A stretch of 64,000 bases of DNA from an uncultured Candidatus Saccharibacteria bacterium. Lineage in GTDB: Bacteria; Patescibacteriota; Minisyncoccia; Minisyncoccales; GWA2-38-27. The notes under the pieces were generated by a model. The model saw only the letters and a program-made list of their open reading frames with translations. It had not been told where the DNA came from and made no database searches. Shown here piece after piece: positions 3,541 through 56,439 of the stretch. The number at the start of each line of letters is the position of its first letter. Positions within the stretch are counted from its first letter, which is position 1. The stretch covers positions 22,349 to 86,348 of the forward strand of contig CAYMZK010000002.1 in NCBI GenBank assembly GCA_964394985.1, written 5' to 3'. The position numbers were made by a program, and so were the translations under genes.

Positions 3541-3543
3541 ATT

Positions 3544-19369: not shown

Positions 19370-20590
19370 TTAGATTTTTGCAATACCTTGCTTGAGTAGA
19401 TTAATATCTTTAGTAACGCAAATCCTCGACCAAGACCCCTCTTCTTCAGGATTCATACCAAAAACATCACATGGATAGATTGCTAGACCCTTTTTAATAA
19501 ATTCGAGAATCATTTCATCTGGCGACAGCGTTTTATAGTATCGAAAATACACGCTATTACCACAGTTTGGATGAATAACATCAACTACATTATCGTTATC
19601 TATTAACGCGTTGCATACTTCGCTGTTACTCACCTGCTGCAACTTTTTATTTGTATCAACGGTGTAGTAATAATTATCGATTTCTTCATTTGAAAACCAC
19701 TTTAGGTCTTCAAATTTTATTCCAGTGCGAGCATAGTAACGAAGAGCTATATCCACAAGAAAAATAAAATCTGCATTAATATTTCCAGAAAAATTTCTGA
19801 CAAGCTGGCTGTTAGAGAGATGCTCAATCAATCTACGGTCTCCGATATAATATCCCGTTCTCATACCTGTCATGCCGGGCATATCTTTTGATAAACCATA
19901 AAGTTTTGCATAATTTTGATATGACCCCTGTATGTGCGGAATGTGAGAAAAACAATAATCTTTATAGACCGTATCAAAATATATCTCATCACTAATAATA
20001 AACAAATTGCTTTCCTTGGATATAGCTAAAAGGTCTTTTGTCCAGTTTTCCGAGTAAATCTGGCACGTTGGGTTGTTAGGATTGGAAAAAAGTATAGCAG
20101 CAGTATTTTCGGTTATATTTTCTGATATTTGGTCTATAGTCACTTGATAATTATTCTCCCTTTTCGAATAAATCAGTTTTGGTATGCCTCCAGCATACTC
20201 TACTGAAGAATGAAAAATTGTATAATCTGGACTAAACAAAATTACTTCTCTTCTGTTCTTATTTTCTGGCAAATTAAGAACAGCTTCTATGGTTGGAAAA
20301 ATAATAGAACTAACGCCGCTACCGACAAATACTTCACTTTTGTCAGAGGAAATTCCCGTTATATTTTTTTCATAATCTAAGACTAGTTGTTTAAACCTTC
20401 TAATACCTCCGAAATCCGAATACGTTAGTGTGTGATGTTTAAACATCAGATCAATTGCTCTTTTGTATATCTTGGGCATTTTAAAAAACTTGGTGTCATA
20501 ATCCATGCTCTCAAGCCTAAGTAACTTCTTCCCATATTTTACGAAGAGGTCCTCATAGAAAAACATTCTTTTATACTTTAATTGTCTCAT
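19370..20590 (-). CDS. PLP-dependent aminotransferase (class I/II fold)
   Basis: YGLSKDMPGMTGMRTGYYIG contains the PLP-lysine region. The start was chosen at the TAATG overlap with the upstream stop. Confidence 0.75.
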   Translation of the reverse strand: MRQLKYKRMFFYEDLFVKYGKKLLRLESMDYDTKFFKMPKIYKRAIDLMFKHHTLTYSDFGGIRRFKQLVLDYEKNITGISSDKSEVFVGSGVSSIIFPTIEAVLNLPENKNRREVILFSPDYTIFHSSVEYAGGIPKLIYSKRENNYQVTIDQISENITENTAAILFSNPNNPTCQIYSENWTKDLLAISKESNLFIISDEIYFDTVYKDYCFSHIPHIQGSYQNYAKLYGLSKDMPGMTGMRTGYYIGDRRLIEHLSNSQLVRNFSGNINADFIFLVDIALRYYARTGIKFEDLKWFSNEEIDNYYYTVDTNKKLQQVSNSEVCNALIDNDNVVDVIHPNCGNSVYFRYYKTLSPDEMILEFIKKGLAIYPCDVFGMNPEEEGSWSRICVTKDINLLKQGIAKI

Positions 20591-21312
20591 TATATCTTTG
20601 TGGCATATAAAAAAGACCAATCCTCTCCATAGCTCGGTATGTAAACAGACGATTCTTTGATATCGGGAAAGTAATCTGATAGCGATTTCTTTAGAATATG
20701 TATTGCTGGTATATATTTGTTATCAACCTCTGTGGAACCAGCTTGTAAGATCACCCACCCTCCTATATTTAGATTTCTATGAATTTCGCGTAGCAACTTG
20801 TAATAGAAAGCTTTAAAATCATCTATCTCCTTTGTACCAACAGGAGTATCAGTAAGATCACATAAGATTGCATCGAATTTAGAATTATTATTTTTGAGAT
20901 ACAATAAGGCGTCACTAACTATAAAATTGATACTCTTATATGTCCGATCATTAGAGTGTATATATTGACCGGTAAGTTTTATAACATCTTCATCAATTTC
21001 AACAACTGTGATGTTAAGATGTGGGTGCTTTTTTGTCACGTGCATAGCGATGTATCCATCACCTCCGCCAAGAATCAAGATATTTTTATTATTGCCGTCC
21101 AATGGAAATAAAAAATGTGTATCATATAACTTATGATCTGTCTCGGCTGTTTGCATGCATCCATCTATAATCAAACATTTCCCAAACTCTAGCGTGTCTA
21201 AAATTTCTATTTGTTGGTATTTGCTTTTCTTATCACAAAGCGTTTCCAGTACATGAACAGGCATTGTGCTGCCGGTGGAAAAGACAGGAAGATTTATAAT
21301 CTTATTTTTCAT
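20590..21312 (-). CDS. Spermidine synthase-like aminopropyltransferase (stand-alone paralog)
   Basis: Motifs [19 protein letters not shown] and CDLTDTPVG. Confidence 0.7.
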
Positions 21313-22573
21313 GATTATTTATCGAAAAGTTATTATGCAATAATTCTTTAACAAACCCCGGCAACGCAAACGATGCTCTGTGTATTTCTTCGTTATAATA
21401 ATGCAACTTATTTCGCTCTGAAAATTCTTTAGCATATTCGTAATTATAATTTTTTGCAGGATCTATAGCGTGTTTGGCACAAAGACAAAAACTCCATAAA
21501 CCAGAGGGATATGTTGGGATTGGAGCTAAAAATAGAGAAACCGTCTTAAACTTTTTGCGCAAATTTAAGTATGTATTCCTTAAAACGCTTGGATTATACC
21601 AAGAAGACCCATTTTGGAGTACTAAGATTCCATCATTTTTTAATACTCGATAAATATCTTTATAAAATTCACTGGTAAAAATACTAAGTGATGGGCCTAA
21701 TGGGTCTGTGCTATCCACGATAATTGTGTCATAAGTATCGTTGGTTAATTTTACATATTTTGCGGCATCTTGAATAATTAACTTTACCCTTTTATCGGCC
21801 AAAGAATCTGACCAAAAAGGAAGATGTGCTATGCTCGCTTTAATTACATCTTCATCAATTTCAACAACTGTGATTCTATTTATAAATTTGTGTTTTAGAA
21901 GCTGAACAACCACTCCTCCGTCGCCACCACCAACCACTAAAATATTTTGAGGGCTAGCGTGAGTTATTACCGGAATATGAGAAATCATTTCATGGTAAAT
22001 AAACTCATCTCTCTCACTTGTCATGATTGCACCATCAAGAACAAGTGTTTTGCCATATTCAAATGTATCGTAGACTTCAACAATTTGATATTCTGATTTT
22101 TTTTTGAATAGCGGAAATCCCTTATGCCTTAATGAATACAATACATTATTATGCCTTTCTGTAACCCAGCGATCATTCCTTAAGATTGACTTAGAAGAAA
22201 AACCGTCATTTAAGTGTTTTAAACGTTGGTCTCCTCGCGATATTTCCATTGTTAAAACATCGCCGGCGCGTAAGACAACTTTTAGGTAATCAAAAGCATC
22301 CCAAGGATTGACGTTTTCTCCGCAAGTGAAAATATCAACTGCCGCGTATTTATATTCAGGCCACGTATGTATAGACAGGTGACTCTCTTTTATAACCACC
22401 ATGCCTGATACACCAAGTGGAGGGAAGTGATGGAACATTGAATTTACAACGGTGGCATTTGCTATCTCGGCAGCTTTAGCCATAACGCTCTCGATATAAG
22501 CAACATTGCACAATTTTTCCTCTGAGCAATCATATAATTCAATTAAAATGTGTTTGCCTAACTTTTCTTGCAT
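21302..22573 (-). CDS. Fusion of S-adenosylmethionine decarboxylase proenzyme (SpeH/SpeD-type) and spermidine synthase (SpeE-type)
   Basis: N-terminal [27 protein letters not shown] is the pyruvoyl AdoMetDC signature. C-terminal motifs are [18 protein letters not shown] and VDSTDPLGP. The start was moved to Met23 (MQEKLGKH), 4 nt after the upstream stop. Confidence 0.8.
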
Positions 22574-22577
22574 AAAA

Positions 22578-23498
22578 TTATGTGAATTTAGATGTGATTG
22601 GTCGAGACTGCAAAATATAAATATTATTTTCTTTGGCACACCACTCTATATCCATCGGTCCCCGGAAAATTTTCTCAACTTTTTTTGCGATTTTTGACAA
22701 GGATATTATCTGTTCGCCCGTGAGTTTTTGTTCTTTCCATTTACGATTGGGTACTTTGCGCAATCTTCCGTTAAAGAATCTCAATTTGTGCTTTTGTGCG
22801 TTAAAATAAACTTCCAGAATGATGTTACCGTTTTTCTCTACAAGATATCTGTCCGGAGTTGCCTGTCCTTGAACTAAGCGTTCACCTATTCCATGAACAG
22901 CCTCTATAATAAGTTCTTTGGAGTCTTCTTTATAAATATTCTCTGTAAAACAAACGCCGGAAACACTCGCATCAATCGCTTCCTGTATCAAGACAGCCAT
23001 TTTGATTTTCTTGATATCCTCAGGTCTTTTTAAATACTTGATTATTCTTTCAGAAAATACAGAAGCCCACACTTTTTTAATGTACCTCTCTATATCTTTA
23101 TATTCGACACCGATAAAGCTTTCAAATTCTCCAGCCCAAGACTTTGTCAAAGCATCTTCTGTGTTGGCAGATGATCTAACCGCCCAGCTTTTGACACCAA
23201 TATTTTTAAGTCCCACTAATTCGTCTTTTAGTTTGCTGTCAATTTTTTGGTTTTCTATTTTACTTCTAATTTTTGCCAGCACCTCAGGCAGCCCGTTATC
23301 TTGGCTGGCAAAGATTAACTCAATTTCATCTTTTAAATCGGCCCTGCCAATATGTTGTACAAAAAAATCCGAGTCTAGAGCAAAGCTTTTCGGAATAAGA
23401 ATGTCGTTTTTTGACATTTCAATAAAGGGCGCGCTTTTTCCACCAACTTTGTCACGAGAAAGAGAAGCGCTTTTTTTATTTAAAGAATATATTTTCAT
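22578..23498 (-). CDS. PEP/pyruvate-binding (PPDK_N, ATP-grasp) domain protein
   Basis: Motifs VGGKSA and [22 protein letters not shown]. The start at MKIYSL lies 1 nt after the upstream stop. Confidence 0.75.
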
Positions 23499-23499
23499 A

Positions 23500-24675
23500 T
23501 TATGATATTTTCTTAGCAATCCCATTACGGGCATCTAATAAAATTCGTTCTCCGTCTTTAAAAAATTTTGTTGCCGTCTTAGTGCCCACAAGGCAAGGTA
23601 TTTTATACTCTCTACTCACTAAGGCGGCGTGGGACATTAACCCACCTTCATCTGTAATTATTCCGCTCACTTTTGAAAAACCAATGGTCAAATCAGGAGA
23701 TGTCATTGGAGCGATTATTATATCTCCTTTTTTTAAAGAAGAAAAGAATTTTTCGTAATCACTCTTGCTAAATAATAGCGACGCGATTTTTGCTCTGCCT
23801 TTAATTTTGCCAGGGTACGCAACTGTTCCGCCAATCTCTTTTTTCTTCGTGTTCTCGTTTTTCTCAATGGCATTTATCTGTTTAAGGCTCAAGTTTTCAA
23901 GAAAGGTCTTGCCATTTTTTACTAAAACCTTGATCCCAAAGATTTTGCTTCTTGCATTTAGCTTATGCGTATCAATTTTGACATTCATAGACAATAACTT
24001 TCTCAATTCATCTAAAGACATGTTGGATATTTGAGATACCGCATAGTTAGTCCTTACGGCGGTTTCCTTTAAGAGTATTTCGGTATCCTCTAATAAATTT
24101 TCTATGATTTTTTTTGCTTCAAATCTTATTTTTGAAATACTATTGACCAAATCAAAGTCATCCTCATACTTTTGCAGACCGTATTCTTTGATTTTTGTTT
24201 TTTTTGACGACAATATCTCAGCCAACAAAACATCCGTGGATTTTCTAGAATTAACTCTTTTGGAGACAATTTTCTTGATATTATTCTCGACATGTTTTAA
24301 CAAATGAGGTTCTGTAAATCGATATATCTCAATGTATTCGCCATAGAGTTTAATTAAATCATTATACAAGCTAAAAATACCATCATTTGATAACTCTTTT
24401 ATGTTTAAACTAACAAATGTTTTATGAAAAATGTTTATCTTTTTTTTGATTACCGAAAAGTCTTTTTTTGTTTCCAATAATGCTTCTGGGTTTTTAATTA
24501 AATTATTAGTCAGGATCAGCGCCTTTTTGATTTCTCTGTTTGTCGCATAAGCAGAGAGCACACCGCCATGATATATTAAATACCCACTATCAAAAAAATA
24601 GTGTTTTCCTGTTGTCTCTGTTGCCCACAGGTAGTCTAAGTAATTTTCTCTCCATAGAAAGATGCCGCTTTTCAT
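23500..24675 (-). CDS. Protein with a C-terminal PEP-utilising-enzyme mobile (phosphohistidine swivel) domain
   Basis: The C-terminus reads MTSPDLTIGFSKVSGIITDEGGLMSHAALVSREYKIPCLVG. No motif was recognised in the N-terminal ~290 aa. Confidence 0.75.
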   Translation of the reverse strand: MKSGIFLWRENYLDYLWATETTGKHYFFDSGYLIYHGGVLSAYATNREIKKALILTNNLIKNPEALLETKKDFSVIKKKINIFHKTFVSLNIKELSNDGIFSLYNDLIKLYGEYIEIYRFTEPHLLKHVENNIKKIVSKRVNSRKSTDVLLAEILSSKKTKIKEYGLQKYEDDFDLVNSISKIRFEAKKIIENLLEDTEILLKETAVRTNYAVSQISNMSLDELRKLLSMNVKIDTHKLNARSKIFGIKVLVKNGKTFLENLSLKQINAIEKNENTKKKEIGGTVAYPGKIKGRAKIASLLFSKSDYEKFFSSLKKGDIIIAPMTSPDLTIGFSKVSGIITDEGGLMSHAALVSREYKIPCLVGTKTATKFFKDGERILLDARNGIAKKIS

Positions 24676-25799
24676 ATCGTTTTATAGAATTTAAACAATA
24701 ATTTTTTGTTTCGTATCATGTGCATTAACTCAAAACTGTAATCAATAAAACTGTTTTTAATTTTTTCTTGTTTTTCTTTCGTAATACTAACATTTAAAAA
24801 TATTTTAAGCAAATACTTTGATTCGTTTATTTTAATAATGTCGACTTTGATAAAAAATTCTCCCCCCAAGATCAGATTCACTATCTTTTTTATTTCATCA
24901 ACCTCGATTCTATATCCCTCATGAAGATCAACGGTTAATTTTAATCTTCTGTCCACCCATATTCGAGGGTGAGATAATCCGCATTTACATTTATCGTACG
25001 ATATTCTACACCTGTCTCCAGACAGATATTTGATTATTTGAGTACCTTCCGGATTAGTGTTTAGGGTAGTGATTACTAATTCCCCCCATTCATTTTTACC
25101 CAAATCTTGTCTTGTTATTGGATCAACAATATCTAGCTTAATTTTTTTTCCATTAAAATGGTACCCATCATGCTGGCTGCATTCGGTGCCAATCACAGCC
25201 TCAGTTAGACCATAAGCGTCATAGACTTCACCGCCATAAATAGCCTCTATTGATTTTCTGTCTTTGTCACTTAATTTTTCTCCGGTCGTTTCAATTATAC
25301 GAAAATTATAATTAACAACAGCGTCCTTAATTTCTAATAACACCGAAGGTAAAGAGGATATTATCGTGGGTCTGATTGTTTCAATTATTTCTTTAATTTT
25401 TTGCAAAGGTAAATCGTTATCAACTGGAACTACTATATTGCCCGCCTTTATATGGCCAATATTTGTTATATAACCAACGCCCCAAAAGGAATGATCCATT
25501 AAAACTATAACTGTTTCATTTTTTATGGCTTTTTCCACGCTACAAAACCATTTTATATAGTCAGAAAAATACTCAATATCGCTGTCGCTATAATAGATTG
25601 CCTTTGGGTTCGAAGTAGTTCCGCTAGTAAAAAATACAGTGCTCCCGTTGACCTTCTGATCAGCGTATACTGATTGGATTTCTGAAGAATCAATAAAGGG
25701 TAATCTATTAAAATTAAAATTCTTTACCTTTTTATATCTATCAGAATAGAAGGGTTTCCTTTTTGCGGTAGCAATAACTTTTTTTAGATTATCTTTCAT
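24672..25799 (-). CDS. Adenylate-forming enzyme (phenylacetate-CoA ligase / F390 synthetase / CapK-like)
   Basis: Motifs FFTSGTTSNPK, YGLTE and YLSGDRCRISYDKCKCG. The start is uncertain (Met42 or Met47 of the ORF). ATGA overlap with the downstream gene. Confidence 0.75.
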   Translation of the reverse strand: MKDNLKKVIATAKRKPFYSDRYKKVKNFNFNRLPFIDSSEIQSVYADQKVNGSTVFFTSGTTSNPKAIYYSDSDIEYFSDYIKWFCSVEKAIKNETVIVLMDHSFWGVGYITNIGHIKAGNIVVPVDNDLPLQKIKEIIETIRPTIISSLPSVLLEIKDAVVNYNFRIIETTGEKLSDKDRKSIEAIYGGEVYDAYGLTEAVIGTECSQHDGYHFNGKKIKLDIVDPITRQDLGKNEWGELVITTLNTNPEGTQIIKYLSGDRCRISYDKCKCGLSHPRIWVDRRLKLTVDLHEGYRIEVDEIKKIVNLILGGEFFIKVDIIKINESKYLLKIFLNVSITKEKQEKIKNSFIDYSFELMHMIRNKKLLFKFYKTI

Positions 25800-27009
25800 A
25801 GCTCCTTTGATCATCGACTGATAGAAGTATTTTAGTTCCCCTATAAGAAGATTTAAAGTTCTTAACCTCAAACTTAATAAATCCTTGTGCACATACATCT
25901 GAAAAATCCAACGACATGTTTTGCAAATTTTGGGCAATCTCTTTCAGTGAAGTCTGGTCCATTTTTTTATCTGTTCCAATATTGAATATGATGTTGTCTC
26001 GACCAGGATCACCGTCAAATATACTAACCTTGCATTCCTTAATGTGCACACTCATTTTTTTAAAAGACTCTATAATCTGGTATGGGAAAACAGTAACGGC
26101 ACCGGAAAGGTTAAATACGTTCTTTTCTCGACCATCTAGAAAAACCTGTGGCAGCGCGGTACCACATTCGCAACTTATATTTTTAATCCGCCCTAAGTCG
26201 CCCATGGAATATCTATAAATTGGAACAATATCAGAATCGTAAACTGTAAATAATAAAGCATGATCCTTATTTGTATCTATTTTAACATAGTCGGGGTTAT
26301 AGTGATACCCTCTCGAAAACTCACATTTATACCCTATAAAAGCTTCGGAAGAAGCATAAGTAGAAAAAGATTTTGCCCCGATTATATTATAAATCTTATC
26401 TCGAATATGGTCGGGCATAAATTCCCCAGACGTAATAACTTTTTCTAATTTTAATTTTAACTCATTCTTTTCCAGGAGAAAAATAAACATGCTCATAAAA
26501 CTTGGTGTTGTTATAATTGTATCTATTTGGTGCTTCTTTATTATAGAAAATAAAGCAATAATTTCGTGCTCATCTTTTAGTAAACCCAGGGGGAAGGCCG
26601 TACTGCCAATTAGCTTTACCGCTTCATATGTAGAAGGTCCTGCCACCCAAGGTCCAAAAGGAAGCAATATTGCTACCTTATTGCGTTTCTTAAGCCCAAT
26701 CTTTTTATAACAGTTGGCTCGATATAAGGCTCTTTTATAAATTTCCTTGATAGAAAGTGGTATCATTTTTGGCTGACCAGTAGTTCCCCCCGAAAAGTAA
26801 AAGAAAGATGCTTTATGTTTGGTATTGCTTAAAAAATCTTTGACATTAGCCCTATCAAAGAGATCTTTATTGGAGGATAAAAGTCTCAACCCATTCTTTC
26901 TAATTTTATTTCTATAATAGGAGGTCTTTAGAACCTTCACTAGCATTTTTAGATTATTAAATCTTTTCTTGCTTACGTTTATAACCTTATTATTTTTTGT
27001 GTCTAACAT
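25789..27009 (-). CDS. Adenylate-forming enzyme (PaaK/F390 synthetase-like), second paralog
   Basis: Motifs FYFSGGTTGQPK and YSMGDLGRIKNISCECG. Confidence 0.75.
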   Translation of the reverse strand: MLDTKNNKVINVSKKRFNNLKMLVKVLKTSYYRNKIRKNGLRLLSSNKDLFDRANVKDFLSNTKHKASFFYFSGGTTGQPKMIPLSIKEIYKRALYRANCYKKIGLKKRNKVAILLPFGPWVAGPSTYEAVKLIGSTAFPLGLLKDEHEIIALFSIIKKHQIDTIITTPSFMSMFIFLLEKNELKLKLEKVITSGEFMPDHIRDKIYNIIGAKSFSTYASSEAFIGYKCEFSRGYHYNPDYVKIDTNKDHALLFTVYDSDIVPIYRYSMGDLGRIKNISCECGTALPQVFLDGREKNVFNLSGAVTVFPYQIIESFKKMSVHIKECKVSIFDGDPGRDNIIFNIGTDKKMDQTSLKEIAQNLQNMSLDFSDVCAQGFIKFEVKNFKSSYRGTKILLSVDDQRSYER

Positions 27010-30684: not shown

Positions 30685-31764
30685 ATGATAATTGAGGGAT
30701 CAGATAAAAATTATGAGATTTTTTTAGAAATGATTCAGTTTGAGATAACTGGAAGATGTAATATGCAATGCAAGCATTGCAGAGCATGGAAAGAACCGAA
30801 AAATGATATGACCTTAGAAATGATAAATAAGGTTTTAGATTTTGCTATTCCAGAAGCTGGAAAAGAAATTCGTTTTACAATATCTGGAGGTTAACCGTTG
30901 TTGCATCCAAATTTTTTTAAAATTCTTAATTTAATAAAAAACAAAGTAGATGCTGCCACTAACACAAAAATGGATCACACAGTCATAACTACTAATGGAT
31001 CTCTTGTTAATAAGGAGATAATCGAAGTTTTAGAAAAAATAAATTTGGGAGAACTATTTTTACAAGTAAGCATTGATAGTCCTAATAAAAAAGAACATGA
31101 CAGCTTTCGACAATCGCCCGGAGCATTTGAAAAAGCTATTAACGCTATTAAATTAACGGCTGATTCTAGCTTAACATTAATGATACGAACAACAATAATT
31201 CCAGATCAACTTTATAATATGGAAAATATGGTAAGGTTGGCTGATAATTATGGAGTGAAAAGAGTAAGCTTTGGACCTGTAATTCCTTCTGGAAAAGCTC
31301 AAGTTGATAAGTCTTTAATACTAGACAAAAAACAAAAAAAGAAATTTATAGAAAATATATTATCGTTAAAAGAAAAATATCCTGACATCAGTATTTCTAC
31401 CGAAGATCCGGTAAAATTTTCCATATGCTCAAAAGTATGGGATTACGGAGATTTTGACTACTCAAGAAATGATTTTATAGGAGGTTGTTCTGCAGGAATA
31501 ACAAATATTAATATTTTAGCTGACGGAACCATTACCCCTTGCTCGATGATGTTAAAACCAATAACAAATATTAAAGATAAAACCCCAAAAGAAATTTTAA
31601 AAAACTATACTTCTTCTAAAATTATTAAAAACTTGATTGAAAGAAACGTAAAGGGAAAATGTAAAACTTGTAACTTTAGCAGGTTGTGCGGAGGATGTCG
31701 AGCTACAGCACACGGGATTAGCGATGATTATTTAGCTGAAGATCCAACTTGCTGGAAGCAATAA
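30685..31764 (+). pseudogene. Radical SAM/SPASM-domain enzyme interrupted by an in-frame TAA at 30892-30894
   Basis: Contains CNMQCKHC (CxxxCxxC). The stop replaces the Glu of the GGEP motif (TISGG*PLLHP). The C-terminus reads CKTCNFSRLCGGCRATA. Both track ORFs are in the same frame. Confidence 0.8.
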
Positions 31765-35664: not shown

Positions 35665-36414
35665 TTATTTTGAGCATAAAATTACCATTCTTTTTGATTT
35701 TTTATTATATTTTTTGCCTTCTGTCGTATCTCCATAAACTTTAATAACATCATTAAAGCCTGCATTTTTTAGCATGTCCTTCATTTTATCCAACGAATAA
35801 AGTTTAGTTATGTATTGAGCGGAGTAATTCCCTCCTTTTTTATCTGTAATAGTTAAATTTACTATTTCTTGGCTATTTTTTTTATCAAAAACTCTTTTTT
35901 CTAAAACAGAGTAGTTTTTTGTTTTGTAGCAACGCTTTGAAAATGAATTTTTGAGTGCTAAGCTCTTATTTCTTATATCAAGCAAAAACTTTCCACCTTT
36001 TTTTAATGACCTTCTCGCCTCTTTTAAAGCTTTAAGGTTTTCTTCTTCTTTCTCAAAATAGCCAAAAGAAGTAAATATATTGATTACCGCATCAAATTGA
36101 TTTTTAAATGGAACTTTTCTCATGTCTCCTTCAATAATTCTTACATCTAAATTATTTTTCTTTGCCTCTTTTCTTAAAATATTAAGAGCTTTTCTGTTTA
36201 AATCAAAAGCTGTCATTTTATATCCAGCCGCAGCCAACGAAATAGTATGCCGCCCGTGCCCCGAACATAAATCCAAAATTTTAGATCCTTTTGGCAAATT
36301 TAAAACACGCTCAATAAAAGCGTTTTCTTTTTTAATATAATCTTTTTTAAATCTCGGATTTTCTTGATAAAGGTCAAGATACCATTTATCAAAAAACTCT
36401 TTATGCCATTTCAT
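35665..36414 (-). CDS. Class I SAM-dependent methyltransferase
   Basis: ILDLCSGHGRHTISLA...FDLN. The start was moved to MKWHKEFF. A hairpin terminator lies upstream at about 36436-36468. Confidence 0.8.
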   Translation of the reverse strand: MKWHKEFFDKWYLDLYQENPRFKKDYIKKENAFIERVLNLPKGSKILDLCSGHGRHTISLAAAGYKMTAFDLNRKALNILRKEAKKNNLDVRIIEGDMRKVPFKNQFDAVINIFTSFGYFEKEEENLKALKEARRSLKKGGKFLLDIRNKSLALKNSFSKRCYKTKNYSVLEKRVFDKKNSQEIVNLTITDKKGGNYSAQYITKLYSLDKMKDMLKNAGFNDVIKVYGDTTEGKKYNKKSKRMVILCSK

Positions 36415-36482: not shown

Positions 36483-37010
36483 CTAATCGTCCCACCAAAC
36501 TAAGTCGGTTTCTACTCCCAACATCGAATTCACCTCCTTTCTTATTATCTTAATACCTGAAACAACCTTACTAAAAGAACCTTTTGCCCTGTACAGCTCA
36601 TGAGTTCTGCTATCCCAACCATCGAGAGAAACTTTAATAATAATCTTTTCCGAAGAAAGGATTCTTAATTGTTTCTCTGTCATTTTGTTAAATAAAAGCC
36701 CGTTTGTTTGAAGACGCAAAGTATAACCGAACAACAAAGCTAATTCAATTATTTCAAAGATAGCTGAGCAAAGAAAAATCTCTCCACCAGTAAGTTGTAA
36801 ATATAGCTCTCTAACATCGGATTGCTTCTCCTTGAAAAAATCTAACACTCTTTTAACGTCATCTATCCTGATTTTATCTTGACCGAATTTTCTAGAGTCC
36901 CTAAAACAATATTTACAATAAGTATTACACCTATTTGTAAGATTAATTGTTAAACTGCTAAAAAACCTTTCAACCGGTAGGGGCTTTACTTTAATGCTTA
37001 ACCGTTCCAT
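36483..37010 (-). pseudogene. Truncated radical SAM enzyme (N-terminal half only)
   Basis: CNTYCKYC and GGEIFL are present. The ORF ends after 175 aa with no auxiliary-cluster region. Confidence 0.65.
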
Positions 37011-38338: not shown

Positions 38339-39055
38339 CTATAGCGTTGCCTCCATTTCTTTTGTCATTTTATCTACCCATTCTTCGAGATTTGGATTTT
38401 CTTTCCATATTTTTTTACCACGTGCAATTAATTTTTTGTGATCTGGATAGCCAAGATTATCAATCTTACCATGTAGTTTAATAAAATCATCCGTATCCTG
38501 AATTACCGCATTAAAAACCTCGGCTAAGTCCCAGAATAATCCTTCTTCGGTGCTTAAATTTTTAAATTTATCTAAGAATTTCCTTTGAACGAAATCGTAG
38601 AAAATAAAGTGAAGCATTTCGTGAAAAATAGTAAAAAGTTGCATATTACGATTATCGTAAATAAAAATCTGGAACCCTCCCCAATCTAAAAAACGAGGAC
38701 AAAAATCAAAAATTGAGAAAACACCAGTAAATTCTTTTTTTGGCCAAGGATAATGATTAAAAATCTTATCAACTGTTTTAAAGAAATCTTCTTGGGTTTG
38801 GTCAAGATATTCCTGTGTTTTTTGATTAAGTTTTTTTAATTCAAGAGCGTGAGATTTATAATATTCTTTAATATATTTATTTAAAAAGCTCTTTGGGTTA
38901 TTAACTGATTCCATTTCTGAAAGATCTGTGTGATAAGGTAAGGCTCTTTCTTTCCAAAAATCACAACCACCAAATTCCGAGTTAGAATAAAATTCCCAAG
39001 CCAAATCTTGGTCTAATTTTTTATCAAATTTCAATTTTATAACTGGATTTAACAT
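38339..39055 (-). CDS. HExxH-motif protein (putative metallopeptidase), cassette 1
   Basis: 238 aa with HEMLH and GYPDHKKL. Paralog of 43493-44212. Confidence 0.7.
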   Translation of the reverse strand: MLNPVIKLKFDKKLDQDLAWEFYSNSEFGGCDFWKERALPYHTDLSEMESVNNPKSFLNKYIKEYYKSHALELKKLNQKTQEYLDQTQEDFFKTVDKIFNHYPWPKKEFTGVFSIFDFCPRFLDWGGFQIFIYDNRNMQLFTIFHEMLHFIFYDFVQRKFLDKFKNLSTEEGLFWDLAEVFNAVIQDTDDFIKLHGKIDNLGYPDHKKLIARGKKIWKENPNLEEWVDKMTKEMEATL

Positions 39056-39144: not shown

Positions 39145-40542
39145 CTACTGAGCTTGTGTTTGCTTGAGAAGATCCCAAACAAGCCACTCTAGGGTCATTT
39201 TTGCGTGAACACAAAATCGTTCATCAAGGTCCCAAATAGACCCATTTTGTATTTCAGCCTGAAATGGACATCCACCGCCGCATATACCAAGAGCAGGACA
39301 ATTCTGACATTGAGGCATATTTAAAGGAGACCGCATGCTCCATTCACGAAAAGTTTCATCCTTGCTAATGTCGAAGAATCCATCATCAACATTAGTTGGA
39401 AAATACTTTCTTTCTGTGACAAAGCCATGACAGATACCGACATCACCATTGGGAGCAATAACGATCTGGTTTCCTCCAGTTGCCCCGCAATCAAACGGCC
39501 AAACATTCCTTTCGATAAAAGCATTGGCTTTACGCATAATACGATCTTCGTAAACACCTTTTTCTCTAAAGATTTGGAAGGCATCGATTATGAAACGAGC
39601 TGCCTTTTCGTTATAACCGTCAAGTATTTTTTCATCTCCACTAATCATGAGATTTAGACCCAAATTTGTTATAGCACATTCATCTAAAAGCACTCTTATA
39701 GTATTATCAAAATCAGAAATATTAACCTCTGAAAGAGTACACGATGCACCAATGTCCATTCCAAGATCTCTACAAATCCTAAACCCTCTTTTGATATCCT
39801 GATATACCGGTTCTCCATTTGTATAAGCACGATGAGAGTTTGTCGCCGATTCATTGCCGTCAATAGATATTGAAACTTGAACATTGTTACCCCTAAGAAC
39901 TTCGGCGATATGATCGGTTAAAAGAGTACCATTCGTAACTAAATTAAGTGTAGTTTTCTTGGGGAGCTTTTCTGCTTTTCTATATTCTCTTATTTTAACT
40001 AGCAATGCTTCAAAAACTGGCCAGTTCATAAGAAGCTCTCCCCCGTAAAAAACTATTGTCTTCTCTGCCTCAAATTGCTCGGAGTCTTTCTGAATTGCAC
40101 GACAAAAGAAATCAAGACCTTTAAGGGCAGTTTCTTTTGTCATATGATCTTCCTTATACCCCGAACTAATTTGGTTTTTTATGAAACAGTAGCTACATCG
40201 AAAGTTACATTTTTCCGTGAGAAGAAAATAAACCAAATGAGGATAAGGGTTTCCAAGAAGACCAAGAAAATATCTTATTACCTGATCGTCTTCCTCGGGA
40301 TTTTGAACTAAAATTTTCACATCTCTTAATACATCAATTATAGTTAAGAGATTTTCTTTTTTTTCAGAATCGGCAATAATCAAATCTTCCGGACAAGCAC
40401 CTCCTTTGAATTCGCTGATCATCGGAAGCAAATCTGTAGGGACATAAACCGGCATCATTCGAAGAGAATGATAGCACGCACTCAGAGACTGTCTTGTAAA
40501 AAAATGAGCAAATCTTGAAAGAAAAAATTTGTTCTTTTCCAT
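39145..40542 (-). CDS. Radical SAM/SPASM-domain peptide-maturase-like enzyme, cassette 1
   Basis: 465 aa with CNFRCSYC and C-terminal CQNCPALGICGGGCPF. A ~100-aa N-terminal extension begins ...LSRFAHFF. Confidence 0.85.
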   Translation of the reverse strand: MEKNKFFLSRFAHFFTRQSLSACYHSLRMMPVYVPTDLLPMISEFKGGACPEDLIIADSEKKENLLTIIDVLRDVKILVQNPEEDDQVIRYFLGLLGNPYPHLVYFLLTEKCNFRCSYCFIKNQISSGYKEDHMTKETALKGLDFFCRAIQKDSEQFEAEKTIVFYGGELLMNWPVFEALLVKIREYRKAEKLPKKTTLNLVTNGTLLTDHIAEVLRGNNVQVSISIDGNESATNSHRAYTNGEPVYQDIKRGFRICRDLGMDIGASCTLSEVNISDFDNTIRVLLDECAITNLGLNLMISGDEKILDGYNEKAARFIIDAFQIFREKGVYEDRIMRKANAFIERNVWPFDCGATGGNQIVIAPNGDVGICHGFVTERKYFPTNVDDGFFDISKDETFREWSMRSPLNMPQCQNCPALGICGGGCPFQAEIQNGSIWDLDERFCVHAKMTLEWLVWDLLKQTQAQ

Positions 40543-40582: not shown

Positions 40583-40613
40583 AGGGGGAGGAAGATTTTT
40601 TCTTCCTCCCCCT
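40583..40613 (-). promoter_or_regulatory. Intercistronic hairpin between precursor and rSAM gene (cassette 1)
   Basis: AGGGGGAGGAAG/CTTCCTCCCCCT, a 12-bp stem with no U-tract. Confidence 0.6.
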
Positions 40614-40622
40614 TGACGCTCC

Positions 40623-40767
40623 TTACCAAGGAGATTTCGTGGACTTGGAATTGTACCTGCACGCACATTTGCACGCACATGTACCACACTTGGATGCATG
40701 GGCGATCTTCGCAGAATTTCCAAGAATCTTCGTAGCATCCTTAACTGTGGGTACTATAAGCCTTCAT
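40623..40767 (-). pseudogene. Cys-rich precursor-like peptide, cassette 1, with frame broken after codon 2 as assembled
   Basis: SD AGGAGA then ATG AAG G|CT TAT AGT... hits TAA after 8 codons. Removing one G gives MKLIVPTVKDATKILGNSAKIAHASKCGTCACKCACRYNSKSTKSPW (47 aa), which is homologous to the cassette 2 peptide. Confidence 0.6.
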
Positions 40768-40942: not shown

Positions 40943-41404
40943 TCAACCTTCAAGTGCAACACTTAATTCTTTACTTAACCAAAAGAATTTTCCATCTTCT
41001 TTCCATTTAATAATAGCTTTTGGCAAAATAACGGGATAAACCTTTTCATTTAAAAATTTATCCTTAGACAGAAAGATAAAATCAATCTCATCTTCTTTGC
41101 TTTTGTCTTCAATATCATCAAACTCAACATAAAAGAAAAGATTAATATCGTGATGTTTCTCTCCATCTTCTTTAGTAAAAATATCTTCCATTCCTCCAAT
41201 TAAAGATACTTTTCTTATAGATATAATAAGCTCCTCATTTAATTCTCGAATCACAGCATCTTTTGCAGTTTCACCAAATTCAACATGACCACCAGCTAAA
41301 AAATAATAATCCTTACATTCATCTTTGTGTTTACAAACTAAAAACTTTCCGTCTTTTTCAACAACAGCCCTCACTCTTATCTCAAATTTTTTATTATTTG
41401 TCAT
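40943..41404 (-). CDS. NUDIX hydrolase
   Basis: Nudix box GGHVEFGETAKDAVIRELNEELII. Confidence 0.85.
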   Translation of the reverse strand: MTNNKKFEIRVRAVVEKDGKFLVCKHKDECKDYYFLAGGHVEFGETAKDAVIRELNEELIISIRKVSLIGGMEDIFTKEDGEKHHDINLFFYVEFDDIEDKSKEDEIDFIFLSKDKFLNEKVYPVILPKAIIKWKEDGKFFWLSKELSVALEG

Positions 41405-41476
41405 TAATTAATCCTAGCAAAATTATATCTTAGAAACAAGAAAAAATGTGCTTAACCAGGTTAAGCACATTTTATA
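41396..41476. repeat. 81-bp repeat (partner of 35302-35382) covering the 5' region and first codons of the NUDIX gene
   Basis: Identical sequence read in both places. Confidence 0.9.
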
Positions 41477-42197
41477 TCTCTTTAATTTGATTTTCGTCTA
41501 TATATGGATATTTCTTTTCCGCCAAGCTAGCTACTTCCGACATTATCTTGTCTGTTACTTTACGATAATCGTCATTAGTTAATTCTTTGTTTTCGTATTC
41601 TGAAAAATATATTGGCTTTCCAATTTTTATTTTCGCCTTAGCCCCCCTAAACTTAGGACGTTTATCATGACGAGACATAATATCATATGTACCAACAATT
41701 CCTACTGGAATTACCGGTACTTTTGCATTTAAGGCAAATTTAGCCACACCAGTAAATGGTTTTTGAATTTCTCCGTCTGCTGACCTAGTTCCTTCTGGAA
41801 AAATCCCAATCATTCTTCCTTGCCTTAGAGCAGAATAAACCTTACCAATTGTTTCGCTTTTATTATGAGCCTCACGATCAACTTTTATTTGACCGGTTAG
41901 ATTCATTACCGGCCTCCAAACTCTGCTCTTGTAAAATTTTTCAGCTGCTAAATAATGCACCTTTCTAGGAGAAGTAGCTGTAAAGCAAATAAAGTCAAAA
42001 TAGCTTTGATGGTTAGAAGCAATTATAACTGGACCTTCCTTGGGAATATTCTCTAATCCTTCCACCTTATCTATCCAAACTCTGTTAACTAAAGACCCTA
42101 GAGTTTTTTTGATTATAGAGTAACCATATTTAACAGATCTGGTTTCTTTAAAATCAGAGATTCCATTATTTTGTTTTGATTTTTTACTCCAAAACAT
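41472..42197 (-). CDS. 1-acyl-sn-glycerol-3-phosphate acyltransferase-like (PlsC family)
   Basis: NHQSYFDF (HX4D) and FPEGTRS. Promoter TTGACA-18-TATAAT lies at about 42215-42245. Confidence 0.8.
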   Translation of the reverse strand: MFWSKKSKQNNGISDFKETRSVKYGYSIIKKTLGSLVNRVWIDKVEGLENIPKEGPVIIASNHQSYFDFICFTATSPRKVHYLAAEKFYKSRVWRPVMNLTGQIKVDREAHNKSETIGKVYSALRQGRMIGIFPEGTRSADGEIQKPFTGVAKFALNAKVPVIPVGIVGTYDIMSRHDKRPKFRGAKAKIKIGKPIYFSEYENKELTNDDYRKVTDKIMSEVASLAEKKYPYIDENQIKEI

Positions 42198-42290
42198 ATA
42201 TTCTTATACTATAATTATAGCACAATAAATAGTATTTTGTCAAACAAGTTTCGGTACATTCTACTCCGAAGTGAAACATCAAGGTAACTT

Positions 42291-42370
42291 AAAAAGGTGT
42301 GCTTAACCCGATTAAGCACATTCTGGAATAACTTTTGTCAGCAATTAATCGCTCCTGGCCCCTTTCCCCT
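42291..42370. repeat. Composite junction repeat, modules 2+3 (copy f)
   Basis: GTGCTTAACCCGATTAAGCAC hairpin plus CTGGAATAACTTTTGTCAGCAATTAATCGCTCCTGGCCCC. Confidence 0.85.
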
Positions 42371-42675
42371 TTAACTTAATAAAGTCAAGGGTAAAAACAC
42401 TAGAGGTTCGTGTTCGATATAAAACTATCGATCGAATTCAAGCAGGAGAAATTATTTCCTTGGTTACTCATAACGAAAACATGGATGTAAAAGTAAAAGA
42501 TGTCCGGCACTATCGCAGTTTCGAACAAATGCTTCGGCAAGAACCATGGGAAAAAATAGCCCCAGAATCACATTCTAGAGAAGAAGTACTTTCTTTGTTA
42601 AAACAAATATATCCCTATCACAAAGAAAAGCTTGGCGTTGTAGTTTTCGAGTTTTCTCGTGCTAACAATAGTTAA
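42349..42675 (+). pseudogene. ASCH-domain gene lacking its 5' end (truncated by repeat copy f)
   Basis: The frame is open from 42349 and reads ...KSRVKTLEVRVRYKTIDRIQAGEIISL...YRSFEQML...GVVVFEF, but no usable start codon precedes the domain. Confidence 0.5.
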
Positions 42676-42720
42676 GACTTTTCTTAAATGTCCAGCCTCC
42701 TATATGGTGACTGGACTTTT

Positions 42721-43047
42721 TTATTTAATCAATTCTATTTTTATTCCAACAGCATTATATTTCTGTTGTTCTTTTTTTGAATAAAATTTATTAACCTCTT
42801 CAATCAATTCCTGTTTTGATTTACCACCAAATCTTTTCGCAGAAAAATCAGAAAAAAGCTCTTCAAAAGAGCTGTAAAGATAAATAGCTTTTACTTTTAC
42901 TAATACTTTCTTTGAAAAATCATCTTTACAAGTAAATTCAATCTGATCGCCAACATTAACTTTTTGGCGTTTTTGATCATATAATCTAGACTCTATGTCT
43001 TTTTTACCACTGATAACTTTTTTAAAGGGATATACGGCAAGTTTCAT
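42721..43047 (-). CDS. ASCH-domain protein
   Basis: 108 aa with FKKVISGKKDIESRLYD...VGDQIEF. Confidence 0.65.
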   Translation of the reverse strand: MKLAVYPFKKVISGKKDIESRLYDQKRQKVNVGDQIEFTCKDDFSKKVLVKVKAIYLYSSFEELFSDFSAKRFGGKSKQELIEEVNKFYSKKEQQKYNAVGIKIELIK

Positions 43048-43405
43048 TTTATGTTTTTCTATGTTTATTTTAAATTCTTTTTAGTGTTTATTTTATCATT
43101 ATACTTTTATCTGGCAAAAAATCCAAGAATAAACCTCAGGTAGGGCTAATATTTTGAATTAATCCTAATAGTTTATTTTCAAAGTAAATTTTTTAATAAA
43201 AAGGCAAAAAGGGGACGCGTCATTTTTGAACAAGGTTTTAGGTTTTTAGGTTTTTCTCTTTATTTTTCGGCTAATTCTTTGTTGTTTGCAATAATTTCTC
43301 TCATAAATATCTTTTTTAATTTTTTCTTAGTTTTTTTGTATTTTCTTCTACACGGTTTAATAATTTTTTTGCATATTTTTATATTTTATTTTCTCTTTTC
43401 TTTTC

Positions 43406-43439
43406 TTATTATACCCTAAAAACTATTTTAAAACAAAAA
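43406..43439. repeat. 34-bp direct repeat flanking cassette 2 (partner 46053-46086)
   Basis: TTATTATACCCTAAAAACTATTTTAAAACAAAAA occurs at both positions. Confidence 0.9.
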
Positions 43440-43492
43440 TAAAGAGCTAAGCTTCTTAAATTAAAACTCGCTCGGGATAAGTTTAAAGATAT

Positions 43493-44212
43493 CTATTTTT
43501 GGAGGTTCTTATCTTTGTTAATTTTAATAATAGATTTATCTAAAAATTTAGTAAAATCTTTATCGTCTCGCCAGATTTTCCTTAGTTCTTCTCTTAATCT
43601 TTTATGTTGAGGATATCCTTTATCTCCGACTAAAATAATCTTCTTGAATTCGGGTTCGTTCAATAAAAAGGTTAAAGCTTCTTTTAAAGCTTCTATTTGT
43701 TGATTATTAAGTCCTCTTTTTCTCAAATAATTTTTATAATAATACAAAAACTGAAGATGCAATAATTCATGACATATTGTTGTTATTGAAGATGGCAAGC
43801 TGTGCCACATCGATATCATAAACCAATTTTCTTTCTGGTTATAAGGACACATAAAACCTGTCGTTAAAAAACACCTAAAATTATTTCTATAAATAGGTTC
43901 TTCGGTAATATGAGAAAGGATATCAAAAAAATTCTTTTCGACCTTACTCCAAATATTCTCAAGCGTAATTAATTCTTGATTGATTACTAGTTTGCGATAT
44001 TCTTTTTTCGGGTGATTTCTTAAATACCTCTCTACTGTATTCTGAGCTTTTGAAAAATCTGATTTTAAGATCTTGGCCAGTAAATCATCCGGAATATGAA
44101 TAACTTGCTCTCGCCAATTAAGTCCGAGCATATCCTTGTTTTTGCTTTTCGCAATCAAAATCCAACTCCAGGCGTCTTTTTTAATGTTATATTTAAAGGT
44201 AACTTTTGACAT
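43493..44212 (-). CDS. HExxH-motif protein (putative metallopeptidase), cassette 2
   Basis: 239 aa with HELLH and GYPQHKRL. Paralog of 38339-39055. Confidence 0.7.
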   Translation of the reverse strand: MSKVTFKYNIKKDAWSWILIAKSKNKDMLGLNWREQVIHIPDDLLAKILKSDFSKAQNTVERYLRNHPKKEYRKLVINQELITLENIWSKVEKNFFDILSHITEEPIYRNNFRCFLTTGFMCPYNQKENWFMISMWHSLPSSITTICHELLHLQFLYYYKNYLRKRGLNNQQIEALKEALTFLLNEPEFKKIILVGDKGYPQHKRLREELRKIWRDDKDFTKFLDKSIIKINKDKNLQK

Positions 44213-44309: not shown

Positions 44310-45712
44310 TTATAAGTTTTCTGATTTTTGGGTCTGTTCATAAAGATCCCAAACTAACCATCGAATAGTTTCTTTAGCATGCACACAAAAGGCCTCATCA
44401 ACTTCCCAAATACTATCTTTTTGGAGATAAGCATTGTGGGGACAACCTCCACCACAAACAGTAAGTGCTTCACAATCGTGACATCGAGACATATTAAGTG
44501 GAGAGCGCTTACTCCACTCTTGCCAAAAAGGATGTACATAGGGATCAAAACTACCATCTGGCTGTACGAAGAATTCCCCTGTACCACTGTAGGCATGACA
44601 AACACCAAATTTCCCATCTGGCCTAACAACAATTTGTCTTCCACAACCAGAGCAATCTCGATCATATAGTTCGCCATTCACAAATGCTTCAACTTTACGC
44701 ATAATCCGATGTTCATGTATTCCCCGCCTTCTCGCGACTTTAAAACAATCAATCATCGCCTGAGCAGCTTTAATAGAATACTCTGAATCTTTAACTCGAT
44801 ATTCACAACTATCTAATAAGGGATTGAAACCTACTTGATCAATACCTAATTCATCAAGAAACCATTCAAGAACCATCGGCAATTCATCAGCGTTTGCTTT
44901 AGAAATAGTACAAGAAATACAAGTTTTAGCACCTGCTTTTTTAAGAATGGAAATTCCTTTCATCACTTTCGAAAATGTTCCTTTGCGACTTTTCTTCCAA
45001 ATACGACACTTATCATTCACTAATTTGTAACCATCCAATGAAACATCGACTTCAATCTTATGATCTGCACAAAACGCAGCAATTTCAGGAGTTATAAGCG
45101 ATCCATTAGTATTAACGCTAGTTGATAGCCCAAGAGGCAACTGCTTACGTTTTTTAAGACGGTTTATTTCTTTCACAGCCGAATAAAAAACTTTAAGATT
45201 TAGCAATGGCTCTCCGCCATAAAATATAATCGACGGTTTCTGGGGATGAAAGTCTGGAAAATTATAAGCTCTTTTCAAGTAGGTAGCAAATTTTCGGATG
45301 GCAGATATTGCTATTACATCAGATATTGTATCACGTTGCATCTTTGAAGAACTATAAGATCCTTCAAAAAAACAATAGGTGCAATCAAAATTACAGTTGT
45401 CTGTCAGAATTAAATAGAGGGTATCAATACACGGACGCGAAAGAATAATTTTTTGTAATCTCTCTATTTTTCTTTCTTCTTTTTCAGTAACCGACACCAA
45501 AAGTTCACAGTTTTTTAATTCGTTGATTGAGCGAGCAACAATCGCTGGCTTTTCAGAAACACTATCAGACATGGAAGATAAAAAACTTTTAAAATAGACA
45601 ATAACTCAGGATTAAGAAAAAGGACTTGTCTATTTAAGGCGTGGAAAACTGCAATAACGTCATTTTTCTTCCAAAAATGAGCGAATCGAGAAAACTTTAA
45701 ATTGTTATTCAT
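44310..45712 (-). pseudogene. Radical SAM/SPASM-domain enzyme, cassette 2, with a -1 frame break in the N-terminal extension
   Basis: The main frame 44310-45572 carries CNFDCTYC and CHDCEALTVCGGGCPH. The conserved N-terminus MNNNLKFSRFAHFW... (start 45712, SD GGAGG) is in another frame, and the two frames meet at an A6/T6 run at 45579-45584. Confidence 0.8.
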
Positions 45713-45747
45713 TTTAAAACCTCCTTTGGAAACTAAACAGTTAAATA

Positions 45748-45781
45748 GGGGGCAGTTTCGCAAAAATACGAAACTACCCCC
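45748..45781 (-). promoter_or_regulatory. Intercistronic hairpin between precursor and rSAM gene (cassette 2)
   Basis: GGGGGTAGTTTCG/CGAAACTGCCCCC, a 13-bp stem with one G-U pair. It occupies the same position as in cassette 1 but has a different sequence. Confidence 0.6.
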
Positions 45782-45792
45782 TTGAGTCTAAG

Positions 45793-45921
45793 TCACTTAC
45801 AGGCTTGCGGACTACCGGTACACGAAGCACACGCTCCACACTTAAGATTCATGACTGGCTTTGTTCTTAGAGTGCCAAGAATCTTGCGATAGGCTTTCTT
45901 GTTTGGTACTACAAGTTTCAT
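45793..45921 (-). CDS. Cys-rich precursor-like peptide, cassette 2: MKLVVPNKKAYRKILGTLRTKPVMNLKCGACASCTGSPQACK (42 aa)
   Basis: Found manually, below the ORF-track cut-off. SD AAAGGAGG lies 7 nt before the ATG. It sits immediately upstream of the rSAM gene and is homologous to the cassette 1 peptide. Confidence 0.75.
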   Translation of the reverse strand: MKLVVPNKKAYRKILGTLRTKPVMNLKCGACASCTGSPQACK

Positions 45922-55350: not shown

Positions 55351-56439
55351 ATGGCGCACTGCCGAAAAACTCAGTTGAGTATATTTTTGACACATCGGTG
55401 CAACCTTCGATGTATTTATTGTTACGTTGGAGAGAAAGAACGAGATAAGTCAGTAATTGACTATGAGTTTGTCAAAAGAGGCATCGAGGATTTCTTTCAA
55501 AAGTATGATTCAAGGGAAATCCGTTTCTTTGCTACCGGAGAACCAACGCTTGAATTTGAGCTAATAAGAAAGATTAAAGACTGGACTTTCGAACAAGTGG
55601 GAGAGGATTGCAGATTTGAACTGCAGACGAACGGTTTTTTCTCAACTAAAATTGCTAAGTGGGTAGCTGAAAATATAGATATTGTTTGGATTTCCTGCGA
55701 TGGTCCACCAGAAATTCAGAATTATTATCGACCAACACCTGCAGGTCGACCAAGCTCAGATATTGTTGAGAAAAATATACAATATTTGGCTACGAAACCG
55801 ATCATGCTAGGGTGTCGGGCAACCGTAGGTAATCGGAATATGGAAAAACAGCGCGAGATGATTGAGTATTTTGCACATCTCGGTGTAAGAGCTGTAATGT
55901 CTGACCCCATGTTTTCTCCTGTTAGAAAATATTCTGGCCAGATTGTTGAATGTGAAGCCCTTGACCTACGGGAATATGCTGAACATTTTTTGGAAGCAAG
56001 AAGGTACGCAATTGAACAGGGTATATTCTATGGCAGTATATTAACTGTTAATTTTGATGAGGAAACAGAATATTTCTGTAGATCCTGTATTCCTTACCCG
56101 CATCTTACAGTTGATGGATATGTGTCAGCTTGTGATATGGCTTTTTCTGGCACAGATCCTACTATGAAAGACTTAATCTATGGTCGTTATATTTCGGAGG
56201 AAGACCGAATAGAATATGACCAAGAAAAGATTAGGTTGATTAAATCTCGAAGTGCTCAGAACATGCCTCATTGTCAGGGATGTTTAGCATTAAAGAATTG
56301 TGCAGGGGCCTGTTTGGGCGAAGCCTTGAATGAAACCGGAAGTATATTTGGGATCAAGCCACATGTTTGCGAAGTAATTCGTTACTTGGCTAAGAGGATG
56401 CCACTCAATCAGGGCTTGTATCCTTATCTTCATCCATGA
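55351..56439 (+). CDS. Radical SAM/SPASM-domain enzyme (no N-terminal extension)
   Basis: 362 aa with CNLRCIYC, ATGEPTL and C-terminal CQGCLALKNCAGACLGEA. SD AAAGGAGG. Confidence 0.85.
   Translation: MAHCRKTQLSIFLTHRCNLRCIYCYVGEKERDKSVIDYEFVKRGIEDFFQKYDSREIRFFATGEPTLEFELIRKIKDWTFEQVGEDCRFELQTNGFFSTKIAKWVAENIDIVWISCDGPPEIQNYYRPTPAGRPSSDIVEKNIQYLATKPIMLGCRATVGNRNMEKQREMIEYFAHLGVRAVMSDPMFSPVRKYSGQIVECEALDLREYAEHFLEARRYAIEQGIFYGSILTVNFDEETEYFCRSCIPYPHLTVDGYVSACDMAFSGTDPTMKDLIYGRYISEEDRIEYDQEKIRLIKSRSAQNMPHCQGCLALKNCAGACLGEALNETGSIFGIKPHVCEVIRYLAKRMPLNQGLYPYLHP

Follow-up and report, generated by a model that had tools for sequence, protein, structure and literature searches.

A probably recent frameshift in the predicted recognition element of a FibroRumin-like radical SAM maturase gene

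Cassette 2 and its split maturase gene

The window (the whole 64,000-nucleotide stretch of DNA that was analysed) carries two RiPP cassettes on its minus strand (Table 1). Cassette 2 appears to be a three-gene RiPP operon of a probable Patescibacteria (CPR) genome, made up of a Cys-rich precursor, a FibroRumin-like radical SAM (rSAM)/SPASM maturase and a HExxH protein. Its maturase gene is divided by a net -1 frame change in the N-terminal extension, and the two frames described in an earlier sequence-only reading are confirmed: a conserved N-terminus, which starts at ATG 45712 behind its own Shine-Dalgarno sequence (AAAGGAGG), and a catalytic body in a different frame. The N frame translates from this ATG as MNNNLKFSRFAHFWKKNDVIAVFHALNRQVLFLNPELLSILKVFYLPCLIVFLKSQRLLLAQSTN. 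Its conserved part (MNNNLKFSRFAHFWKK...LNPELL) spans codons 1-39 (45712-45596), which encode strands beta1 to beta3 and the beginning of helix alpha1 of a predicted RiPP recognition element (RRE), and the last 26 codons of the fragment are read-through out of frame. Over codons 1-39, residues 4, 35 and 39 are the sole differences from P0001, an intact orthologue with 94% identity overall, and the match is therefore far beyond chance.

The body frame is open from 45605, behind a body-frame TGA at 45608-45606, and overlaps the N frame for 29 codons, from that TGA to the N-frame stop. The mechanically called ORF runs from ATG 45572 to 44310 (minus strand, 420 aa, -1 relative to the N-terminus). 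The remainder of the RRE, the CNFDCTYC radical SAM motif and the SPASM cysteines all lie in the body frame. Inspection of the sequence found no Shine-Dalgarno motif in front of ATG 45572; the one that precedes ATG 45712 is kept in L002, the locus of the closest intact orthologue. Joined in one frame, the two parts give a protein of 467 aa. The closest intact orthologues (94%, 80% and 78% identity) are just as long, and the intact orthologues recovered by the protein search range from 463 to 467 aa at 74-94% identity. No further stop or indel was seen in this otherwise intact 1.4-kb gene.

Genomic comparison shows that the other two genes of the cassette accompany the maturase elsewhere. Peptides near-identical to the 42-aa precursor (MKLVVPNKKAYRKILGTLRTKPVMNLKCGACASCTGSPQACK) are encoded upstream of the orthologous enzymes at five loci (L002, L004, L006, L008 and L009); the precursor itself matches TIGR04135 (FibroRuminTarg) weakly, at 17.3 bits vs a cutoff of 45. 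The gap between the peptide and enzyme genes holds a stem-loop whose arms are GGGGGTAGTTTCG and CGAAACTGCCCCC, which the terminator scan did not call. Cassette 1 also has a strong, G+C-rich stem-loop in its precursor/maturase gap (about 40585-40615, minus strand, GGGGGAGGAAG...CTTCCTCCCCC). The stem-loops of both cassettes may be putative attenuators that set the ratio of peptide to enzyme. The HExxH gene follows the enzyme in L002 and L004 as well (69% and 68% identity). Its product has no match in Pfam and NCBIfam searches and is homologous to that of a cassette 1 gene (38339-39055, minus strand; 24% identity over 150 aa, E 8e-9). In either cassette, gene three encodes a protein of about 239 aa with a HE(L/M)LH motif, a putative candidate for the leader peptidase. 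Beyond the cassette, comparison with L002 revealed no synteny: its NUDIX and SnoaL-like genes (2812-4304) have no counterpart in the compared part of the window (40943-43500), the window's own NUDIX gene (40943-41404) shows no similarity to that of L002 at E < 1e-5, and cassette 1 was not found on the L002 contig. Since synteny stops right after the cassette, the comparison suggests that both cassettes belong to a variable part of the genome.

Table 1. Coordinates of the features discussed, numbered along the window
Feature	Position	Strand	Remarks
Third rSAM/SPASM gene	30685-31764	+	In-frame TAA at 30892-30894
Cassette 1 rSAM/SPASM maturase	39145..40542	-	Intact, 465 aa; TIGR04136 404.4 bits (cutoff 400), profile 1-454
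Cassette 1 precursor peptide gene	40623..40767	-	Codon 3 has an extra base (around 40760)
Cassette 2 third gene	43493..44212	-	239-aa protein with HELLH (HExxH) motif
Cassette 2 maturase body, -1 frame	44310..45590	-	Conserved from K42 (AAA 45590-45588)
Cassette 2 maturase, N-terminal fragment ORF	45515..45712	-	65 aa and stop; stop codon 45517-45515
T6 run (A6 on the plus strand)	45580..45585	- (coding)	Wild-type length; the overlap has no other six-base A/T run
T_TTA_AAA heptamer	45587..45593	-	N-frame register; arises at the lesion; starts at the last base of codon 40
Lesion	45593..45597	-	Codons 40-41; one base fewer (net) and 1-2 substitutions, from the DNA alignment with L002 and the codons of 11 intact orthologues
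Cassette 2 maturase Shine-Dalgarno sequence	45720..45727	-	7 nt before ATG 45712; read from the sequence
Stem-loop between peptide and enzyme genes	45748..45781	-	13 pairs, one of them G-U; read from the sequence
Cassette 2 precursor peptide gene	45793..45921	-	Intact; 42-aa Cys-rich ORF

Family and predicted leader-binding domain of the maturase

The best NCBIfam model for both cassette enzymes is TIGR04136 (FibroRumin system radical SAM peptide maturase). The joined cassette 2 protein is colinear with this model over its full length, including the N-terminal SRFxHF segment (282.8 bits, residues 7-459 on profile 1-455 of 458), and the 420-aa body alone reaches 261.1 bits and covers profile positions 47-455, both scores lying below the curated cutoff of 400. 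Against the cassette 1 enzyme, the joined protein aligns end to end from residue 3, at 34% identity (E 3e-95). Pfam Radical_SAM is found in the cassette 2 enzyme at 63 bits, and the Pfam SPASM model is reported for the cassette 1 enzyme only. An alignment of 31 family members reveals invariant columns at C107, C111 and C114, at G166, G167 and E168, and at C411, C414, C420, GGG and C424; the CxxxCxxC motif, the GGEP motif and the SPASM cysteines of a radical SAM/SPASM RiPP maturase are thus all in place, and the cassette 2 enzyme is a member of this known enzyme class. Two more specific models score far below their cutoffs, those for the PapB-type ranthipeptide maturase (NF047865, 141.2 bits vs a cutoff of 340) and the SCIFF equivalog (98 bits vs 425). 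Homologues that carry names come mostly from Patescibacteria/CPR MAGs, and the best match in the GTDB scan, a set that does not include this genome, has 57% identity. Neither the name 'FibroRumin' nor the accession SRR7048227, discussed below, is mentioned in the literature searched.

The same 31-member alignment shows S8, F10 and H12 of the N-terminus to be nearly invariant. The sequence-only reading had considered that homologues might genuinely start at the internal Met of the body; since these N-terminal residues are so strongly conserved, they do not, and a protein starting there would lack the first 46 positions of the profile.

An AlphaFold2 model computed on the family alignment (mean pLDDT 91) places strands at residues 5-7, 11-16, 19-24 and 30-33 and helices at 35-46, 57-68 and 80-89; the rSAM barrel comes next and the SPASM domain last. 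The modelled N-terminus forms a three-stranded sheet with three helices, like known RREs. Its best PDB matches in Foldseek are CteB (5WGG/5WHY) and TigE (8VPO), both over the full length (E about 1e-20, TM 0.68-0.77), and the family profile aligns with TigE from residue 6 (E 1e-39, positions 4-454). Residues 3-85 of TigE form a typical winged helix-turn-helix RRE, with the peptide bound between beta3 and alpha3 (PMC10878394). From the modelled fold, these structural matches and the extent of the TigE element, the N-terminal extension of the cassette 2 enzyme (the first ~90 residues) is a predicted RRE of the winged helix-turn-helix type found in CteB and TigE. The frame break falls within its first helix, alpha1, just after beta3.

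In the intact 467-aa enzyme, the N-terminal RRE would dock the leader peptide, and the rSAM/SPASM body would then cross-link the core cysteines, probably as thioethers, going by similarity to PapB and CteB only. We know of no member of the FibroRumin family whose chemistry has been determined.

Position and origin of the frameshift

The sequence-only reading placed the break at a homopolymer, an A6 run at 45579-45584 on the plus strand. The run itself lies one base further on, at 45580-45585, and comparison with the DNA of 11 intact orthologous loci shows that it is not the lesion. The body frame reads xxT TTT TTA (x-F-L) across a T6 run in 8 of the 11 and across T5 in the other three, so T6 is the normal in-frame length, and upstream of the run the body frame of the window already reads K-S-F-L-S, matching the orthologues. 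From codon 38 onward, L002 has TTG TTT AGC ATT AAA AGT TTT TTA TCT and L004 has CTA TCC AGT ATT AAA AGC TTT TTA TCC. In the DNA alignment, the gap opens before the run, where window TTG TCT A-T TTT AAA faces L002 TTG TTT AGC ATT AAA; over the region 45593-45597, this amounts to CTATT in the window vs TTAGCA in L002. Where the orthologues have AGY, GAC or AGA followed by ATT, the window has (A)TTTT (AGY ATT -> ATTTT). The lesion thus lies 8-17 nt upstream of the T6 run and adjoins merely a T4 run. One extra T in the T6 run does fuse the frames into a 467-aa ORF, as had been proposed, but the orthologues locate the missing base elsewhere, and the question of whether reads show A7 at the run aims at the wrong site.

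The same frameshift is present in contigs built by an independent assembler (Logan, run SRR7048227), with 100% identity over 2634 bp for the contig at the lesion and over 11.4 kb of the window for the contigs together; these contigs probably share reads with the window, so that they rule out an assembler artefact but not a problem at the level of reads or minority variants. An exact-protein look-up for the same or a near-identical intact allele elsewhere returned only Logan SRR7048227, and a scan of JGI metagenomes returned only orthologues of at most 82% identity. Wherever a JGI or other close orthologous locus covers the 5' end, tblastn matches it in one unbroken segment that starts at residue 1. 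Split genes are likewise absent from the 80 GTDB loci searched by tblastn with the family proteins, where multi-frame cases are adjacent paralogues only, and from about 90 related loci altogether (GTDB plus the 11 close orthologous loci). Substitutions polarised along the two branches number 11 synonymous and 9 non-synonymous for the window and 12 and 10 for intact L002 (dN/dS about 0.22 in both), giving no signal of relaxed selection on the cassette 2 maturase, a result that cannot part a very recent mutation from an artefact. With no extra decay and equal dN/dS, the mutation is very recent, or not real, or tolerated.

A genuine and recent inactivating frameshift is the reading we favour, and it is probably correct; the cassette 2 maturase gene is most likely a young pseudogene. 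A sequencing or consensus error, through which the sequence of an intact gene came to lack one base of the T4/A4-rich stretch 45587-45597 at the sequencing or the assembly stage, is unlikely. In its favour, the gene is perfectly conserved over its 1.4 kb apart from the frameshift, selection is not relaxed, and the allele is known from one sample only. It has to contend with the identical sequence produced by two different assemblers, with a site that has no long homopolymer and that differs from the orthologues by substitutions in addition to the deletion, and with two other lesions nearby that are equally reproduced, including a base substitution that creates TAA. The version put forward in the sequence-only reading, a contraction from T7 to T6 at 45580-45585 that might be phase-variable, accounts for the fact that one T added there restores an ORF of the right length. 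It is nevertheless very improbable, for the intact orthologues have T6 in frame (or T5) at that position, the body-frame K-S-F before the run agrees with them, and the alignment gap falls upstream; the same tract length speaks against a phase-variable homopolymer locus.

Expression across the break has also been weighed. The lesion creates a heptamer of the slippery X_XXY_YYZ kind, T_TTA_AAA, in register exactly at the junction, and a -1 slip on it would give ...ELLSILK-SFLSSM..., just as slippage of tRNA-Phe or RNA polymerase on T6 would give ...KVF-LSSM...; either product has 467 aa and is colinear with the orthologues, whose sequence conservation the gene shares undiminished. That some full-length enzyme is made at a low level in one of these ways is nonetheless quite unlikely. 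Heptamers of this kind occupy 1.2% of in-frame codon positions in the AT-rich window, which gives the 29-codon overlap a chance of about 0.30 of containing one or more. The 97 nt downstream contain no stimulatory structure, being less structured than shuffled sequences (-11.9 kcal/mol vs a shuffle mean of -16.0, z = +1.48), and no upstream Shine-Dalgarno-like stimulator (GGAGG) was found before the heptamer. No relative has the frameshift (80 GTDB and 11 close loci), and a T6 tract is too short for efficient transcriptional slippage. Programmed -1 frameshifting was rejected on these grounds: a heptamer expected by chance, without downstream structure and not conserved in relatives. A two-piece enzyme, whether put together from a 65-aa fragment and a 420-aa body that are made separately or consisting of a body that functions in the absence of the RRE, is the hardest of the readings to credit. 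Stand-alone RRE proteins do exist in other RiPP pathways, and the N-terminal fragment retains its Shine-Dalgarno sequence and start codon, but the cut lies inside helix alpha1 and not between domains, the fragment carries 26 out-of-frame residues, the ATG of the body has no Shine-Dalgarno sequence, and the arrangement occurs in no relative.

Under the favoured reading of a recent frameshift, a lineage-specific mutation would have removed one base from codons 40-41, inside helix alpha1 of the RRE. As a result, translation from the ATG at 45712 would end after 65 aa, and the catalytic body would be left without a ribosome-binding site of its own and without the RRE beta-sheet. To judge from the gene's sequence, the cassette 2 maturase would thereby have lost its function. 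An uncultured Patescibacteria genome thus probably carries an inactive copy of a FibroRumin-like RiPP maturase, in itself an ordinary event. Annotation pipelines will mis-call the gene as a 420-aa enzyme without a leader-binding domain. The case also carries a caution, in that a homopolymer beside a frame break need not be the lesion: intact orthologues shifted the site by about 10 nt.

Lesions in the neighbouring RiPP genes and comparison with known systems

Cassette 1 bears a lesion of its own, in the peptide gene. Its start reads ATG AAG GCT TAT AGT ACC C in the window vs ATG AAG GTT ATT GTG CC in the orthologues, and the ATG is in frame in five orthologous peptides (L020, L023, L026, L030 and L055; L030 has ATG AAG GTT ATT GTG CCT). 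Because of the insertion, ATG 40767 and ...LIVPTVKDATKILGNSAKIAHASKCGTCACKCACRYNSKSTKSPW lie in different frames, so that this ATG yields only MKAYSTHS followed by a stop, and the rest of the peptide (LIVPTVKDATKILGNSAKIAHASKCGTCACKCACRYNSKSTKSPW) is intact and perfectly conserved. The single lesion that the sequence-only reading had assigned to this gene therefore holds against five intact orthologues. Its larger claim, of one lesion per cassette with one intact peptide gene and one intact enzyme gene left over, is formally correct for both cassettes.

A third rSAM/SPASM gene of the window is broken as well. Its in-frame TAA replaces the invariant Glu of the GGEP motif (ISGG*PLLHP, with the asterisk as the stop; GAA -> TAA), which one G-to-T change would explain. 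By NCBIfam, the gene is NirJ2/AhbD-like, at about 150 bits and under the cutoffs. Both this stop, which is found in Logan contig L088, and the +1 insertion of cassette 1 are reproduced in the SRR7048227 contigs.

The window has five rSAM genes within 26 kb. A radical SAM ORF at 36483-37010 (minus strand) has only 175 aa, matching Pfam Radical_SAM positions 1-142 and lacking SPASM; either a remnant left by truncation or a short rSAM protein would fit, and a class I methyltransferase gene (about 35665-36400) comes directly after it. The fifth gene, an rSAM/SPASM gene at 55351-56439 (plus strand, 362 aa), appears intact, with a PapB-like best model at 115 bits, below the cutoff. Three further regions suspected of holding split genes (15719-17036, 20590-23534 and 24672-27009) proved to contain separate genes or paralogues, and an unsystematic look at the other long ORFs of the window found no obvious break.

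The complementary lesions raise the idea of a natural hybrid RiPP pathway, in which the cassette 1 maturase processes the cassette 2 peptide. By reading of the sequences, the two leaders share 11 of their first 16 residues (MKL-x-VP--K---KILG), which makes recognition by the surviving RRE conceivable, and some cassette 2 enzyme could in addition still arise by residual -1 slippage at T_TTA_AAA. We give a hybrid pathway only a slim chance. Identity between the two enzymes is only 34%, and elsewhere either enzyme type is co-conserved with its own peptide type. With the third rSAM gene broken as well, general decay of the RiPP genes is a simpler reading than designed complementarity. Several independent lesions in RiPP and rSAM genes within 15 kb bear on how RiPP pathways are lost in small-genome bacteria, and the peptide-rSAM-HExxH cassette family, being well conserved, is a reasonable biochemical target.

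As a genetic event, the split gene resembles the ordinary frameshift pseudogenes of bacterial genomes and MAGs, with an early one-base indel, intact relatives and no conserved recoding signal; it differs in that sibling RiPP genes of the same 15-kb region bear independent lesions. With programmed -1 frameshifting of the dnaX and IS3-family transposase type it shares an X_XXY_YYZ heptamer in register at the frame junction. Unlike those systems, the window has no hairpin, pseudoknot or Shine-Dalgarno-like element, and the frameshift is not conserved in relatives. As an enzyme, the joined protein has the architecture of CteB and TigE, an N-terminal winged helix-turn-helix RRE, then an rSAM barrel, then a SPASM domain that holds two auxiliary clusters, although sequence identity to CteB (a SCIFF/ranthipeptide thioether synthase) and TigE (a cyclopropyl synthase) is only 18-19%. 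Its nearest described relatives are the FibroRumin system families: TIGR04136 is the best-scoring family for both enzymes of the window and is colinear over the whole profile, and, as with TIGR04136 and TIGR04135, a Cys-rich precursor is encoded directly upstream. The window peptides, however, match TIGR04135 weakly (17-20 bits vs the cutoff of 45), and the cassette 2 enzyme, at 283 bits, represents a separate, Patescibacteria-centred subfamily with a peptide type of its own (KCGACASCTGSPQACK).
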